Positions 15,678-61,970 of a DNA stretch of 64,000 nucleotides are shown in pieces (positions within the stretch are counted from its first letter, which is position 1; every line of letters begins with the position of its first letter). The DNA is from an uncultured Gammaproteobacteria bacterium (GTDB lineage: Bacteria > Patescibacteriota > Microgenomatia > UBA10105 > UBA927), in assembly GCA_964394685.1 (NCBI GenBank), contig CAYMYO010000001.1, positions 64,040 through 128,039 of the forward strand, written 5' to 3'. The position numbers were made by a program, and so were the translations under genes. The notes beneath the pieces are model-generated. The model saw only the letters and a list, made by a program, of their open reading frames with translations. It had not been told where the DNA came from and made no database searches.

Positions 15678-17324
15678 ATGCGTAGGTTACTGGTAATTGT
15701 GCTGTTTGGAGCATGTTTTATGCCTTTAGTGGCATTGGTTGTACCGGGATTACCCATAACTAATGACGGGCAAGATCATGTTGCAAGAATTGCAAATTTT
15801 TATCAATCTCTTTTAGATGGAAATAGTGTTCCCCGATGGGCTGGAAATTTAAATTGGGGGTATGGACACCCGATATTAATGTTTTTGTATCCGCTGTCTT
15901 CGTATATCGGATCCTTCTTTCACGCTGTTGGTTTGTCCTATGTAGATGCAATCAAAACGGTATTTGCACTCGCATTTATTGCAAGTGTATTGGCAATGTA
16001 TCTATGGATAAAAACTGCATTCGGAAAACGAGCGGGTATCATTGCGGCACTCTTATATGGATTTGCGCCATACCGGTTTGTAGACCTATATATTCGAGGT
16101 GCAATAGGGGAACACGTCGCTTTTGTTTTCCCGCCTCTTATTCTTTTCTTTTTATATGTACTTGCCACACAAAAGAAATATGTCGTTCATGGTATTGGAC
16201 TTAGTATTTCTATTGCCTGTCTAATACTGTCTCATAACGCATTTTCTTTAATGTTCCTCCCGATTATTGCTCTCTATGCACTGTATCTATTTTTTACAGA
16301 AACAAAACGATCCCCATACTTTATACTTTATACTTTATACTTTATACTTCTCGGTTTTGGTCTTGCAGCATTTTTTTGGGTGCCGGCATTTCTTGAAGGA
16401 AAATATACCTTACGTGATATCGTGACAAAAGGGGAGGCATTACAACGATTTGTTCCACTCTCTATGTTTTTATATTCACCTTGGGTAATTGGCGGAGGAG
16501 ACGTTACGACAAAGTTTTTGGGACTCCCTCAATGGTTGGGAGTTCTTGGGTCGATTATGATACTTGTTAAAACAAAAGAGAAAAAATTGCGATGGTTTAT
16601 TGGAGGAACACTTTTGCTTCTTATCGGAAGTCTTTTTATTATGACTCAGTGGTCTCGATGTATATGGGAAAAAATTATGGTTATTCAAAATTTTCAGTTC
16701 CCATGGCGATTTCAGATGATTTCTGTATTTTTGACCGCGCTTTTATCCGGAATTAGCATTCCGTATAGTATTAAAATTCTTAAGATAAAACAAAATGTAA
16801 AAAAATATTTATTTATCGTATTTTGTGTCGCTTCAATATTTGTTACTGTCCACATGTGGAAGCCAAAAGGATATACACTTAAACATGAATCCTTCTATAC
16901 AGGGATATATAATAGTACAACGGACACAGGAGAAAGCAGTCCTGTATGGTCTGTACGGTTTATGGAATACGCTCCATCGAAACGAATGGATGTGATAGGT
17001 GGCATTGCAACTGTCACCCAGCGGAGTCGTACAACAACTGAACATGTGTACACAATACATGCGATGACGCCAAGTCAATTATTGGAAAATACACTCTATT
17101 TCCCGGGATGGAATGTGTATGTTGATGGGAAGAAAACTGATATTGAATTTCAAGATCCTCATCATCGGGGCATCATGACATTTCGGATTGATGAGGGGAT
17201 TCATGAAGTGCGTGTAGTATTTCAAAATACGAAAATTCGCATTTACGCTGAATATATTTCGCTCATAAGTTTCGGTATCTGTATAATGCTTATTATACGA
17301 GGATGTATATGGAGAAAAAAATAA
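15678..17324 (+). CDS. Membrane protein with PTPS-related domain (PF10131/COG5617-like), putative glycosyltransferase
   Basis: The sequence ITNDGQDHVARIANFYQSLLDGNSVPRWAGNLNWGYGHPILMFLYPL...YRFVDLYIRGAIGE matches the family. The C-terminal LYFPGWNVYVDGKKT motif is also present. The gene contains heptad array R1. Confidence 0.6.
   Translation: MRRLLVIVLFGACFMPLVALVVPGLPITNDGQDHVARIANFYQSLLDGNSVPRWAGNLNWGYGHPILMFLYPLSSYIGSFFHAVGLSYVDAIKTVFALAFIASVLAMYLWIKTAFGKRAGIIAALLYGFAPYRFVDLYIRGAIGEHVAFVFPPLILFFLYVLATQKKYVVHGIGLSISIACLILSHNAFSLMFLPIIALYALYLFFTETKRSPYFILYTLYFILLGFGLAAFFWVPAFLEGKYTLRDIVTKGEALQRFVPLSMFLYSPWVIGGGDVTTKFLGLPQWLGVLGSIMILVKTKEKKLRWFIGGTLLLLIGSLFIMTQWSRCIWEKIMVIQNFQFPWRFQMISVFLTALLSGISIPYSIKILKIKQNVKKYLFIVFCVASIFVTVHMWKPKGYTLKHESFYTGIYNSTTDTGESSPVWSVRFMEYAPSKRMDVIGGIATVTQRSRTTTEHVYTIHAMTPSQLLENTLYFPGWNVYVDGKKTDIEFQDPHHRGIMTFRIDEGIHEVRVVFQNTKIRIYAEYISLISFGICIMLIIRGCIWRKK
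16316..16350 (+). repeat. Heptad array R1: (ATACTTT)x4 + ATACTTC, inside CDS (encodes PYFILYTLYFILL)
   Basis: Direct reading shows ATAC recurring every 7 nt at 16316, 16323, 16330, 16337 and 16344. Confidence 0.85.
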
Positions 17325-18085
17325 TCCTGTCTGTCGCAATCGTAACTTTTAACGAAGAACAGAACATTGATGCTTGCTTATTATCAATCAGCCAACTGGC
17401 TGATGAAATAATCGTCGTTGATGGCGGATCGAGTGATACAACGTGTGAAATAGCAAAGAAATATAACGCAACAATTATCCACACAGATAATCCACAAATA
17501 TTTCATATTAATAAACAGAAGGCACTTGATGCGTGTCATGGGGAGTGGATTTTGCAGCTTGATGCAGATGAGGTGGTGACAGAAGAATTGAAGAAAGAGA
17601 TCCTGAATCCGCCAACTGGCGGACAGGATGACAAACATTATAACGGATACTATATTCCGCGGAAAAATTATTTTTGGGGTCATGTTATGAAGAAGGGCGG
17701 CCAATATCCCGATTATGTCATACGACTTATTCGTAACGGCAAAGCCCATTTCCCCTGTAAAAGTGTTCATGAACAAATTGAAGTTGATGGGACTGTTGGA
17801 TATTTGAAAGAACCAATGCTTCACTATTCATACAGAACAAAAGAAGACTATTGGAAAAAAGCAGATACCTATACGACGCTGAGGGCTCTATCTATGCAGG
17901 AAAATAACATCAAAAAAACGCTTGGTACATGGGTACGTTATAACATTATTCTTCCCATAAAAACTTTTTTTCTTTTATTTATCAGACATAAGGGGTTTAT
18001 TGATGGATGGTATGGACTGGTCTTTGCCTATTGGTCTGCGCTCCACTTCCCAATATCATATAAAAAATATCGTAAAATGCTATGA
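17309..18085 (+). CDS. Glycosyltransferase family 2
   Basis: The N-terminus is GT2-like (LSVAIVTFNEEQNIDACLLSI...VVDGGSSDTT), and the DADE motif appears in ILQLDADEVV. The gene overlaps the 3' end of 15678-17324. Confidence 0.8.
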   Translation: MEKKIILSVAIVTFNEEQNIDACLLSISQLADEIIVVDGGSSDTTCEIAKKYNATIIHTDNPQIFHINKQKALDACHGEWILQLDADEVVTEELKKEILNPPTGGQDDKHYNGYYIPRKNYFWGHVMKKGGQYPDYVIRLIRNGKAHFPCKSVHEQIEVDGTVGYLKEPMLHYSYRTKEDYWKKADTYTTLRALSMQENNIKKTLGTWVRYNIILPIKTFFLLFIRHKGFIDGWYGLVFAYWSALHFPISYKKYRKML

Positions 18086-18600
18086 AAAAAATAACTTCGG
18101 TTGTGATTTTATACATAATACTTTATACGTTATACCTTATACTTCCGCTTGCTGTACAAGCGGAATATGTTCTTCCCTATCCATCATCTATGCCGGGGAA
18201 TAAAATATATAAAATAACAAGATTAGTCGATTGGCTTAAGAATTATTGGTATTGGGGAGATATTGCGCAGGCGAAGTACCATCTCATGTTGTCGGATAAA
18301 TATCTTGTTGAAGCGAAAATACTTTTTGAATATAAACAATATTTATTGGGAGACGAAGCGCTTGTACGGTCTTCAAATGAGTGGCAGCAGATACAGCCGC
18401 ATCTCAATTTTGCAAAAAATCATAATAAAGATATTACGAAATTATTTATCCTCTATAAAGAAGCTGCACAGGTTCATGAAATAGTGTTGCGTTCATTTAT
18501 TGTTCCCGAATCAATACTGTGGAATCCTGAGAAAGGAACATCTACAAATTTATATTTAAAAGAAGATATCACGAAAGCGATTGAAATTCGTAAACAATAA
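18082..18600 (+). CDS. Hypothetical secreted protein (signal peptide)
   Basis: The start overlaps the upstream stop in ATGA fashion. The N-terminal hydrophobic stretch ITSVVILYIILYTLYLILPLAVQA has an AQA cleavage-like site. The mature part is hydrophilic and Tyr/Trp-rich. Confidence 0.5.
   Translation: MKKITSVVILYIILYTLYLILPLAVQAEYVLPYPSSMPGNKIYKITRLVDWLKNYWYWGDIAQAKYHLMLSDKYLVEAKILFEYKQYLLGDEALVRSSNEWQQIQPHLNFAKNHNKDITKLFILYKEAAQVHEIVLRSFIVPESILWNPEKGTSTNLYLKEDITKAIEIRKQ
18111..18145 (+). repeat. Heptad array R2: ATACATA ATACTTT ATACGTT ATACCTT ATACTTC (within signal-peptide coding region)
   Basis: Direct reading shows ATAC at a 7-nt period five times. The terminal ATACTTC unit is the same as in R1. 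Confidence 0.8.
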
Positions 18601-60784: not shown

Positions 60785-60788
60785 AGCT

Positions 60789-61970
60789 ATGGTTATTGCT
60801 ATTGATGGCTATGAAGCAAATGTTGAAAATCGAGTAGGTATCGGCCGGTATGCGTATGAAATACTAAAGCATATATACAAAATACGATATACAAAATACG
60901 ATATACAAAATACCAATTTCCGTATTTACCTCCCGGAGAAGCCACTGCCGGATATGCCCAAAGAAACAGCGTGGTGGACATACCATATTGTGAAACCAAA
61001 GAAATTATGGACCTTTATTGGATTTCCATTAGCTCTTTTCAGGGATACGCCCAAAGCTGACGTAGTGTTTTCTCCCACGCACTATATTCCTCGGTTTGTC
61101 ACTACTCCTCGTGTTATGTCCATCATGGATTTGTCGTATTTATCGTTTCCAGAGTTATTTAAAGCGAAAGATCTTCACCAATTAGTTCATTGGACACGAT
61201 ATGCAGCTAGTCATGCAAAACTTATCTTCACAATCAGCGAATTTAGTAGAAATGCTATAATTAAGGCATACCGGGTGAACCCGAAACATGTCGTTGTGAC
61301 CTACCCGGGACTGACGGAAAAAGTATCAAGTATCAAGTATCCCCGCCTGCCGGACGGGCAGGAAGTATCAAGTATGGAAATTACAAAAAAATACGCAATT
61401 GCAAAGCATTATATCCTCTCAGTAGGCACAATTCAGCCACGAAAAAATTATGAACGCTTAATTGAAGCATTTGCACTGTTTTTGCAAAAAAACAAGCAGA
61501 AATTTGGAACGATTGACCTCGTGATTGTAGGCAAAAAAGGGTGGCTGTATGATGAAATTCTTCATGCTCCAAAGCGATATGGCGTGGAAAAGCTGGTAAA
61601 ATTCTTGGATTTTGTGCCTGATAATGATTTACCGGCTCTTTACAAGAATGCATTGTGTTTTGCACTTCCCAGCCTCTATGAAGGGTTCGGATTACCGGTT
61701 CTTGAGGCTATGGCACAAGGATGTCCTGTCGTTGTCAGCAATAGCTCTAGTCTTCCTGAGATAGCAGGCGACGCTGGAGTTTATGTAAATCCAGCTAGTG
61801 TTGAAAGTATTGCGAGCGGGCTTTTAACAGCAGTTCGACAAAGAAACCTGATGCAAGGGAAAATTCGTGTAAAAAAAGGACTTGAGCAAGTTTCGAAATT
61901 CTCATGGGATAAAGCAGCGAAAGAGACAATAGATCTTCTCGAACGTGTAGGGAAAGGAACATTGATATGA
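60789..61970 (+). CDS. Glycosyltransferase family 4 (contains two in-frame heptad arrays)
   Basis: The N-terminus [25 protein letters not shown] is GT4-like, and the EX7E block [30 protein letters not shown] is present. Confidence 0.85.
60875..60916 (+). repeat. Heptad array R6: (ATACAAA ATACGAT)x2 ATACAAA ATACCAA, 42 bp in-frame within GT4 (encodes [14 protein letters not shown])
   Basis: Direct reading shows ATAC at a 7-nt period six times. Confidence 0.8.
61323..61378 (+). repeat. Heptad array R5 (GTATCAA GTATCAA GTATCCC | GC-rich hairpin | GTATCAA GTATGGA), 56 bp in-frame within GT4
   Basis: Direct reading shows the 7-nt phase conserved across the GC-rich insert CCCGCCTGCCGGACGGGCAGG. 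That insert has a 6-bp stem CCTGCC/GGCAGG and a 5-nt loop. The array encodes [18 protein letters not shown]. Confidence 0.8.

Follow-up and report, generated by a model that had tools for sequence, protein, structure and literature searches.

Tandem arrays of seven-nucleotide units have been known from bacteria since 1990, and their origin and function are not understood. According to the passages devoted to them in PMC4679880 and PMC4692102, among long simple sequence repeats (SSRs), such heptanucleotide arrays outnumber every other class in most prokaryotic genomes, with polymerase slippage, favoured by a 7-nt footprint of DNA polymerase, as the proposed cause (Mrazek 2007), and the heptamers of the short tandemly repeated repetitive (STRR) sequences STRR1-3 are genome-specific in Calothrix and Nostoc (Mazel 1990). 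The heptamer sections of PMC4692102 name GGGAATC in Xanthomonas and GGGGA(C/T)T in Nostoc, and describe the GGGANTN repeats of Xanthomonas as arrays that share a conserved core, most often have four units and commonly occur as inverted pairs, and whose positions are conserved between species while their length varies. Corresponding parts of PMC4679880 describe TAACTGA repeats of Beggiatoaceae, Cyanobacteria and Bacteroidetes, present in 2-6 copies and with 7-nt indels between strains. Short palindromes read in frame within genes form a separate class, represented in the relevant part of PMC3733652 by Rickettsia palindromic elements (RPEs) and by intragenic repetitive extragenic palindromic (REP) sequences. 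Here we describe seven heptad arrays, and a GC-rich palindrome nested in one of them, in a stretch of 64,000 nucleotides (the window; positions 64,040 to 128,039 of contig CAYMYO010000001.1, assembly GCA_964394685.1) that has 36% GC and whose proteins have their closest relatives in Microgenomates (Gottesmanbacteria-like Patescibacteria of the candidate phyla radiation, CPR).

Our analysis indicates that these arrays are a CPR version of the known and unexplained bacterial heptanucleotide repeats, and no new kind of element. We detected arrays using Tandem Repeats Finder (TRF) together with scans for exact period-match runs, and took the chance level from dinucleotide shuffles (n = 100). A first-pass annotation of the window, made from its letters, had listed seven loci, all of which are real and lie at or within a few bases of where they had been placed (Table 1); it had spoken of eight or more, but an eighth was not found, the remaining period-7 rows of the TRF output being A/T-rich low-complexity runs. 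Each array consists of 3-6 tandem heptads and spans 29-42 nt. The range of 35-56 nt given earlier was too high, as its upper end had counted a 21-nt palindrome inside R5, which consists of a ~34-nt array plus this insert. The ATAC/GTAT unit family accounts for six of the seven arrays, with ATAC(TT)N units on the plus strand in R1, R2, R3 and R6 and on the minus strand in R4 and R5; Rc, built on (GCTTACT)4, does not belong to it. That the arrays are not random is borne out by ATACNNNATACNNNATAC, which has 17 matches in six loci of the window compared with a mean of 0.03 in the shuffles. Exact runs of at least 10 number three at period 7 and three at period 14, with none or one at each of the other periods from 4 to 13 and a shuffle mean of about 0.1, and period 7 and its multiple 14 are thus the sole over-represented periods in the window. 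An assembly artefact was considered and rejected: the arrays do not differ between the NCBI, JGI, ENA and Logan assemblies, do not reach the final k-mer size of a typical assembly and leave reading frames intact. As pure direct tandem repeats with neither spacers nor terminal inverted repeats, they lack the traits of miniature inverted-repeat transposable elements, CRISPR and REP sequences. An Rfam scan of seven related loci (relatives only) gave no family above threshold, for the arrays or for the palindrome, and its only sub-threshold matches in an E-value search were Phe_leader and Flavo-1.

We next placed these arrays alongside two sets of related DNA. The neighbourhood of the GT4 glycosyltransferase gene was compared with four other Microgenomates loci (L003, L005, L006 and L007; compared loci carry L numbers throughout), and a second set comprised 66 loci around orthologues of the GT2 glycosyltransferase gene at 17303-18085, giving 313 kb of non-redundant sequence picked via that gene and independent of repeat content. 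In these 313 kb, period 7 yields 37 exact runs that reach a length of 10, 17 of which also reach 14, while no period other than the multiples of 7 yields more than 6 and 3, respectively; period 7 (with 14) is therefore the sole over-represented period in this related Microgenomates DNA as well. TRF finds ~1.2 period-7 arrays per 10 kb of the GT2-anchored loci. Array lengths pile up at 30-36 nt, or about five units, with almost none longer.

Every GT4 locus compared holds several period-7 arrays, but each has units of its own: TCAAAAG and GTTTAGG in L005; AGATAAC, AAAGTTT and AGATCAA in L006; and TACTTAC/GTAGTAA, AGGAAGA and GTCGAAA in L007. These arrays occupy the same kinds of site as in the window, namely loop 1 of GT4 (the R6 site), the epimerase stop and following spacer (the R4 site) and short spacers, with an (AGGAAGA)3.7 array of L007 lying immediately 5' of a start codon. 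Within L147 one unit may serve twice, with TTATCAC in two arrays and AAATGTC in two arrays. Across the orthologues, the same variable sites are reoccupied with different units, including the transmembrane (TM) helix of R1, the signal peptide of R2, a loop of GT2 and two loops of GT4. In the variable loop of GT2 (window residues ~100-115, before NGYYIPRK), at least seven orthologues have a heptad or 14-mer array, each with another unit, and in two of these a GC palindrome lies inside the array; the GT2 of the window has no array there. One intergenic array of L005 has a unit, GTTTAGG, that matches the plant-type telomere 7-mer (TTTAGGG), which is probably a coincidence.

Outside this group, a cross-phylum scan for (ATACTTN)4 with one genome per species returned at least 119 loci in many phyla, and the arrays are therefore not lineage-specific, as the first-pass annotation had supposed; nor are they without counterpart, given the heptanucleotide repeats described repeatedly before. 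More than half of the matches listed belong to Bacteroidota, judged by record titles, and the others come from Nostocales, Ignavibacteria, nine Patescibacteria, Gammaproteobacteria and further groups. Among the loci listed, arrays of period 7, 14 and 21 number 213, 63 and 32, with at most 35 for any other period. Separately, two soil contigs from a GC-rich non-CPR bacterium (L189 and L190) contain inverted arrays of (GGCATGA)~11 and (CTCATGC)~3-5 that differ in length between the two samples.

The location of arrays in genes follows simple rules. Since 7 and 3 have no common factor, translation of a perfect heptad array runs through every phase in turn: (ATACTTT)n encodes a stop-free cyclic peptide, ILYTLYF, and its complement (AAAGTAT)n has TAA in every frame. 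Because an array passes through all three frames, only a stop-free orientation survives in an open reading frame (ORF), and in the window the ATACTTT orientation is found within ORFs (R1 and R2), the complementary one only at a gene end (R4), and R5 uses an AAGTATC variant without a stop. In-frame read-through, which had been singled out earlier as a special feature, is accordingly a filter imposed by selection and no property of an element, the stop-free orientation being needed in any ORF; the same stop-codon rule had already been set out for TAACTGA repeats in a portion of MacGregor 2015 (PMC4679880). In the window and relatives together, 43 of 64 arrays, about two thirds, lie at least 30 codons inside an ORF, and most of these run through all three sense frames without a stop, the antisense strand usually being closed. 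Intergenic and boundary positions probably hold more arrays than the small fraction of DNA they occupy would predict. The coding sites are TM helices, signal peptides and variable loops: about half of the 43 encoded peptides (22) score above 0.75, that is, moderately to strongly hydrophobic, but only 4 of 43 exceed 1.5, a score typical of TM segments, while 13 are plainly polar and loop-like and the rest are intermediate. The gene contexts first described for the window, comprising TM and signal-peptide regions, a GT4 gene, a divergent gap and a convergent gene end, all held up. We found no specific link to glycosylation, the genes of which the arrays had been proposed to diversify: nearly all ORFs of the window are glycan or envelope genes, including PMT_2, YfhO and PTPS_related membrane glycosyltransferase-like proteins, GT2, GT4, DegT aminotransferases, epimerases, methyltransferases and a flippase-like protein, and for this reason the location of arrays in such genes is uninformative here and cannot show enrichment.

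Because the alignment of orthologous proteins fixes the register, the birth and change of arrays become visible in CPR genes. The site of R1 lies immediately ahead of the conserved motif GFGLSAFFW. Its length is the same in 16 orthologues, and five of these carry arrays there in other units. The window has (ATACTTT)5 at this site, L128 a degenerate copy of the window array, L151 (ATACTTTATACGTA)2.5, L138 a perfect (ACTTTTC)4.9 and L162 (AGTTATT)~5, with no repeat in the remaining orthologues. The L151 protein is only ~51% identical to that of the window, yet has units of the ATACTTT type. The Rc array exists in the window only; its orthologues are of equal length and non-repetitive, and in L130 20 of 33 nt are identical in register and the peptide remains alike (LLFIAYCLL, compared with LLLTAYCLL in the window). 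At the R6 site, L003 (~81% identical to the window over aligned columns) and four further orthologues are likewise of equal length and non-repetitive, the first 14-nt unit of R6 still resembling L003 (10/15 nt), and the same loop has other heptad arrays in L005, L006 and L007. As the orthologous sites have equal length whether they hold no repeat or another one, the coding arrays R1, Rc and R6 are, judging from these alignments, stretches turned periodic in place, with no net change of length and no insertion.

Arrays also persist. R1 keeps its position and length in L128, changed only by substitutions, and R2 does so in L128 and L129 with 4-5 substitutions, in a relative whose flanking GT2 has ~76% protein identity; elsewhere, orthologues of R2 have signal peptides with 7- or 14-nt periodicity and other units. 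R3 is kept in L003 with one substitution. Whole units change at two loci. R4 has five units compared with ~2 in L003, a difference of ~3 units, and L006 has (AAAGTTT)4.4 at the same gene boundary. The two arms of R5 are divided 3+2 in the window but 1+4 in L003, in units, for an identical total length, such that the palindrome follows unit 3 in the former and unit 1 in the latter and is read in different frames, as PRLPDGQE and GLPAGKAG. Taken across these alignments, arrays thus appear to stay perfect or to decay, with whole-unit change where it is tolerated or compensated. The earlier idea of a slippage or recombination substrate fits the behaviour of R4 and R5; at R1, R2 and R3 the unit number is unchanged. 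The first-pass annotation had also said that arrays without length polymorphism in related genomes would be uninteresting; R1 and R2 go part of the way towards this, as they differ from their relatives by substitutions only, and they lend no support to the proposed diversification of glycosylation genes. R4 and R5 differ in units. No frameshifted (OFF) allele at an array was seen in ~16 orthologues, and exact-protein look-ups for length polymorphism returned only contigs of the same population, from two sequencing runs, that are 100% identical to the window. A Logan contig of this population (L194) begins within the perfect array R1 (L194 1-14 = window 16337-16350), and this start may reflect an assembly break caused by the repeat (graph ambiguity) or length heterogeneity.

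In addition to the heptads themselves, we analyzed the palindrome that interrupts R5. Removal of the 21-nt insert leaves an in-phase five-unit array, and the same operation restores an in-phase five-unit array in L003 and L007. Its counterpart there, the 21-mer CCTGCCTGCCGGCAAGGCAGG, is identical in loop 2 of the L003 GT4 (among GTATCAA units) and in loop 1 of the L007 GT4 (among GTCGAAA units), which are non-orthologous sites. Homologous elements of the form CCTGCCTGCCGGCA(A)GGCAGG occur in L003, L007, L128 (two copies), L138, loci of Bacteroidota and some viral contigs. The copies listed in Table 1 represent a family of GC-rich palindromes of 20-21 nt with the consensus CCTGCCTGCCGGCAGGCAGG, which lies in AT-rich genomes, is often nested in heptad arrays and is translated in frame into LPAGKAG- or PAGRQ-type peptides; the L138 copy is the perfect 20-nt palindrome CCTGCCTGCCGGCAGGCAGG. 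A stable hairpin is predicted, with an energy of -12 to -20 kcal/mol for the copies in the window, L003, L007 and L138. Set against four orthologues, each of the L128 copies is an insertion, of 9-14 codons. Copy number ranges from one in the 64-kb window to two in 6 kb of L128, with two related palindromes in L007. A different GC palindrome, of 28 nt, splits an (ATCAGCA)5 array in L147. Elhai reportedly described, in 2008, small dispersed repeats of 21-27 nt in Nostoc, which the palindrome may resemble.

The same 20-mer is found in loci of Bacteroidota, with a Chitinophaga copy lying between GTATCAA units; in three Bacteroidota loci the palindrome stands directly 3' of a TAnnTTTG-like motif. 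Viral contigs contain 89 stretches with the palindrome, mostly in DNA of 60-70% GC, where such a GC-rich sequence is presumably much likelier to occur by chance, and in-phase heptad flanks are present in 5 of 95 viral-contig occurrences, with no lag other than 7 giving such cases. A literature search with the palindrome sequence returned unrelated zebrafish primer matches only, and a scan of 54 window ORFs revealed no transposase, reverse transcriptase or gene like that of the REP-associated tyrosine transposases (RAYT/Y1). The palindrome has no GTAG or CGTC tag.

Collectively, these findings make it fairly probable, in our view, that the arrays are heptanucleotide SSRs of the STRR/long-SSR class, produced by 7-nt misalignment and shaped by selection, with no mobile element and no device for diversifying glycosylation involved. 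Under this proposal, DNA synthesis or repair in these genomes would misalign preferentially by 7 nt; strands would pair briefly out of register, and templated correction, or else the gain or loss of a unit, would then make neighbouring 7-mers identical (concerted evolution), until a stretch of ~30-36 nt crystallises into ~5 copies of one unit. Selection would then act as a filter. Short intergenic spacers and gene ends would tolerate any orientation, while within ORFs only the strand orientation that is stop-free in three frames would pass, and only in weakly constrained segments, namely TM helices, the cores of signal peptides and loops at the surface or between domains. A constraint on protein length would leave only outcomes that are length-neutral, the array overwriting older sequence without adding to it. 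Once formed, an array could persist for long and decay by substitution, with whole-unit change in unconstrained places. The misalignment proposal is supported by period 7 being the sole over-represented period both in the window and in the 313 kb, and by each relative having units of its own at comparable sites. The length-neutral sites of R1, Rc and R6 support origin in place, and the conserved position and length of R1, R2 and R3 in L128 or L003 support persistence. The placement of arrays within ORFs, the whole-unit changes at R4 and R5 and the earlier accounts of the same repeat class also count in its favour. The data show the excess of period 7, the rules of location, the length-neutral birth in place, the persistence and the altered unit number at two loci, and the misalignment step is inferred from them.

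Several observations weigh against plain slippage. It predicts lengths that fall off monotonically, whereas the arrays instead pile up around five units, and it predicts arbitrary units, whereas one family dominates each genome (ATACNNN in 6/7 window arrays). A TACTT core is present in 16 of 53 units across Microgenomates, compared with ~2.5% expected; ATACTTT-type units recur at the R1 site in the distant L151 protein; and (ATACTTN)n is recurrent across phyla. Together these suggest a sequence preference or a templated step beyond plain slippage. They are also why we gave weight to a second explanation, in view of the five-unit focal size, the dominant unit family, the TACTT excess and the distant R1 units: that a dedicated sequence-directed process, such as templated patch synthesis, ectopic conversion or a tiny mobile element, writes five-unit arrays of ~35 nt that serve as landing sites for the 20-21-nt GC palindrome. 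We consider this unlikely. It would account for the reuse of one unit within a genome (TTATCAC and AAATGTC twice each in L147, ATACNNN six times in the window), but units vary widely between and within genomes, even at one orthologous site, and the coding arrays came about through substitutions that keep the register of the ancestral sequence, with no insertion. On the side of the palindrome, its presence as an identical 21-mer in loop 2 of L003 and loop 1 of L007, the two L128 copies as true insertions relative to orthologues, the five-unit arrays restored upon its removal in three loci, the splitting of (ATCAGCA)5 by another palindrome in L147, and its position among heptads in Chitinophaga and, at lag 7 only, in the few viral-contig cases all point toward such a process; against it are the single copy in the whole window, the want of a transposase, reverse transcriptase or RAYT-like gene among the ORFs scanned there, and the high GC content of most viral-contig matches, for which chance is presumably much likelier. 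A bolder version, in which the five-unit patches are written in place and length-neutrally and the palindrome CCTGCCTGCCGGCAGGCAGG lands in them and moves within arrays, between genes and between phyla (CPR, Bacteroidota and some phage contigs) while being translated in frame, is similarly doubtful. If true, few known mobile DNA elements would be as small as the palindrome, which would act within protein-coding genes.

We give still less credence to the arrays being contingency loci, in which gain or loss of one heptad at R1, Rc, R5 and R3 would switch envelope glycosylation genes on and off by phase variation. Classical SSR switches include the lic and lgt genes and the 7-bp repeats upstream of hmw1A/hmw2A in Haemophilus. 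The arrays resemble these in having a unit length that is no multiple of 3 and in lying in surface-glycan genes; furthermore, the compensated two-unit difference at R5 implies frameshifted intermediates or simultaneous events, and the Logan contig break in R1 would fit length heterogeneity, if it is not mere graph ambiguity. On the other hand, the arrays are short (3-5 units), with 4.9 perfect units at R1, 4.1 at Rc and 3.0 at R5, fewer than in known switches, and R2, R3 and R4 are degenerate, such that poor slippage is expected; the unit number of R1 and R2 is kept in a relative as far removed as the neighbouring GT2 indicates; frameshifts at an array are absent from all of the ~16 orthologues; in relatives, signal peptides, loops of diverse genes and intergenic spacers hold arrays just as often; and two sequencing runs of the same population both gave contigs that match the window exactly. 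For the perfect arrays, phase variation is possible but not supported. Least probable of all, and in our estimation quite remote, is that the heptads are functional DNA or RNA binding sites for a regulator, as proposed for TAACTGA upstream of start codons, or promoter-like elements. Here one may point to TATACT, which resembles a -10 box with TTTATA 17 nt upstream within the array, to R3 filling a divergent promoter gap, to the L007 array directly upstream of a start codon, to the conserved TACTT core and to inverted pairs (R4/R3, and one in L128) that could form hairpins; yet two thirds of arrays lie deep in ORFs, units vary within a single genome as well as across orthologous sites, and no candidate binding protein was identified.

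Table 1. Arrays, palindromes and other features of the window and of compared loci. Positions refer to the window unless another locus is named.
Feature	Locus	Position	Strand	Sequence	Context
R1	window	16316-16350	+	(ATACTTT)4 + ATACTTC; 4.9 perfect units	YFILYTLYFIL, TM helix of PTPS_related/PMT-like membrane protein 15678-17324
R2	window	18108-18145	+	degenerate ATACNNN x5	hydrophobic core of signal peptide, ORF 18082-18600
Rc	window	19431-19459	+	(GCTTACT)4.1, perfect	LLLTAYCLL, start of TM helix in GT87/MptA-like membrane protein 19127-19753
R4	window	59762-59800	-	ATACNNN x5; orientation with stops in all frames	convergent gene end; first bases overlap TAG stop of epimerase gene 58785-59765; occupies spacer between this gene and 23S_rRNA_IVP gene
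R3	window	60750-60784	+	ATACNNN x5, degenerate	fills 41-bp divergent gap between half-GT4 (60178-60747, minus) and GT4 (60789-61970, plus)
R6	window	60873-60916	+	(ATATACAAAATACG)3 = ATACNNN x6	14 residues in variable loop 1 of GT4 60789-61970
R5, whole	window	61322-61376		(AGTATCA)x3, 21-nt palindrome, then x2	inter-domain loop (loop 2) of GT4
R5, left arm	window	61322-61341	-	(AGTATCA)x2.9 = GATACTT on minus strand	
R5, palindromic insert	window	61342-61362		21-nt CCCGCCTGCCGGACGGGCAGG, stem CCTGCC/GGCAGG	read as PRLPDGQ
R5, right arm	window	61363-61376	-	AAGTATC AAGTATG	in phase with left arm
Palindrome copy	L003	4065-4085			
Palindrome copies	L007	1149-1169; ~1605-1640			
Palindrome copies	L128	472-492; 1368-1388			
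Palindrome copy	L138	1780-1799			
Palindrome copy	L126	6467-6486			
Palindrome copies	L121	4969-5067			
GT2-loop array	L128	1346-1388			GT2 orthologue
GT2-loop array	L133	594-618			GT2 orthologue
GT2-loop array	L142	685-716			GT2 orthologue
GT2-loop array	L145	4305-4334			GT2 orthologue
GT2-loop array	L157	801-832			GT2 orthologue
GT2-loop array	L162	4275-4307			GT2 orthologue
GT2-loop array	L147	4283-4340			GT2 orthologue
Inverted array pair	L128	1835-1868; 1892-1928			
Telomere-like array	L005	2399-2431		GTTTAGG units	intergenic
Inverted arrays	L189	1420-1572		(GGCATGA), (CTCATGC)	soil contig
Inverted arrays	L190	1448-1600		(GGCATGA), (CTCATGC)	soil contig
23S_rRNA_IVP gene	window	59808-60242	-		Avd-like four-helix bundle; adjoins R4
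IVP gene	L007	628-990			flanked by inverted heptad arrays
Long-unit repeat	window	53176-53293		39-nt unit x3.0, 97% identity	13 codons per unit, within ORF 52369-53454
23-nt repeat	window	53046-53099			just upstream of 39-nt repeat
Membrane protein run	window	380-24900			~12 paralogous large membrane proteins

A few further features of the window deserve mention. Between R4 and R3, which are inverted relative to each other (33 nt, 82% complementary), lie the IVP gene and the stand-alone half-GT4 gene. The half-GT4 gene points away from GT4 in the window and in L003 but shares its direction in L005 and L006, a difference consistent with a possible inversion between inverted arrays. That this half-GT4 gene (~185 aa, Glyco_transf_4 only) might be a truncated GT4 was rejected, as it is a conserved stand-alone gene in relatives. 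The IVP gene next to R4 is absent from the otherwise collinear L003. A link between heptad arrays and IVP genes was considered and rejected, since a jackhmmer search of the ORFs of ~190 loci found IVP only in the window's population and in L007. The ORF that holds the 39-nt repeat has no Pfam match. The 25-kb run of paralogous membrane proteins (PMT_2, YfhO, PTPS_related and GT87-like) consists of GT-C-type glycosyltransferase-like proteins, at a density unusually high for a small CPR genome.

What interests us most is that the arrays are length-neutral and about five units long, and that a palindrome nests in them. CPR genomes have almost no intergenic space, and most arrays therefore end up inside genes, where length-neutral birth in place, the size of about five units, turnover of units at a fixed site and interruption by a palindrome can all be seen. 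If 7-nt register homogenisation is general, it would be a major mutational force on those protein regions that are free of constraint (TM helices, signal peptides and loops), reaching a large part of the bacterial tree, and would fill protein databases with some spurious peptides of 7-residue periodicity. Arrays and palindrome are also local low-complexity stretches able to break assemblies, as in the Logan contig starting in R1.

Compared with known systems, the arrays are closest to the STRR/long-SSR repeats, with which they share tandem 7-nt units, a uniquely over-represented period 7, a mode of ~4-5 units, one unit that dominates each genome and combines a conserved core with variable positions (here ATAC(TT)N; cf. 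GGGANTN in the heptamer sections of PMC4692102), frequent inverted pairs, and positions kept between relatives while the sequence, and at some loci apparently the unit number, varies. They do not share the predominantly intergenic location of STRR-type repeats, as 43/64 lie in ORFs, about two thirds, compared with the 7-11% given for Xanthomonas in part of PMC4692102. The host also differs, being a CPR bacterium with very short spacers, and the units are A/T-rich and cannot form G-quadruplexes. SSR contingency loci are alike in a unit that is no multiple of 3 and in a location in or next to surface-glycan genes, but the present tracts are short and often imperfect, keep their unit number at R1 and R2, and gave no OFF alleles.

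The palindrome, for its part, resembles the RPEs and intragenic REPs covered in part of PMC3733652 in being a GC-rich hairpin read in frame within variable loops, present or absent between orthologues and identical at non-orthologous sites; it differs in being far shorter than RPEs (100-150 bp), in having no GTAG/CGTC tag and no RAYT gene among the window ORFs scanned, and in being nested in heptads. As with TAACTGA repeats (in the sections of PMC4679880 that concern them), the stop-containing orientation lies at ORF ends overlapping stop codons, as at R4, the other orientation lies inside ORFs in peripheral or non-domain parts of proteins, and the distribution over phyla is scattered, like that of (ATACTTN)n; the indels in 7-nt steps between close strains with TAACTGA may have a parallel in the unit differences of R4 and R5 from L003; by contrast, the unit is another one, and TAACTGA stands mostly just upstream of start codons whereas our arrays are mostly ORF-internal with no evident start-codon link. 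A literature search for heptanucleotide repeats together with CPR found no paper mentioning both. Relative to the described cases, what these CPR arrays add is mainly their intragenic location, their A/T-rich units and, setting them apart from STRR and long SSRs, an in-place and length-neutral origin that can be demonstrated for the coding arrays.

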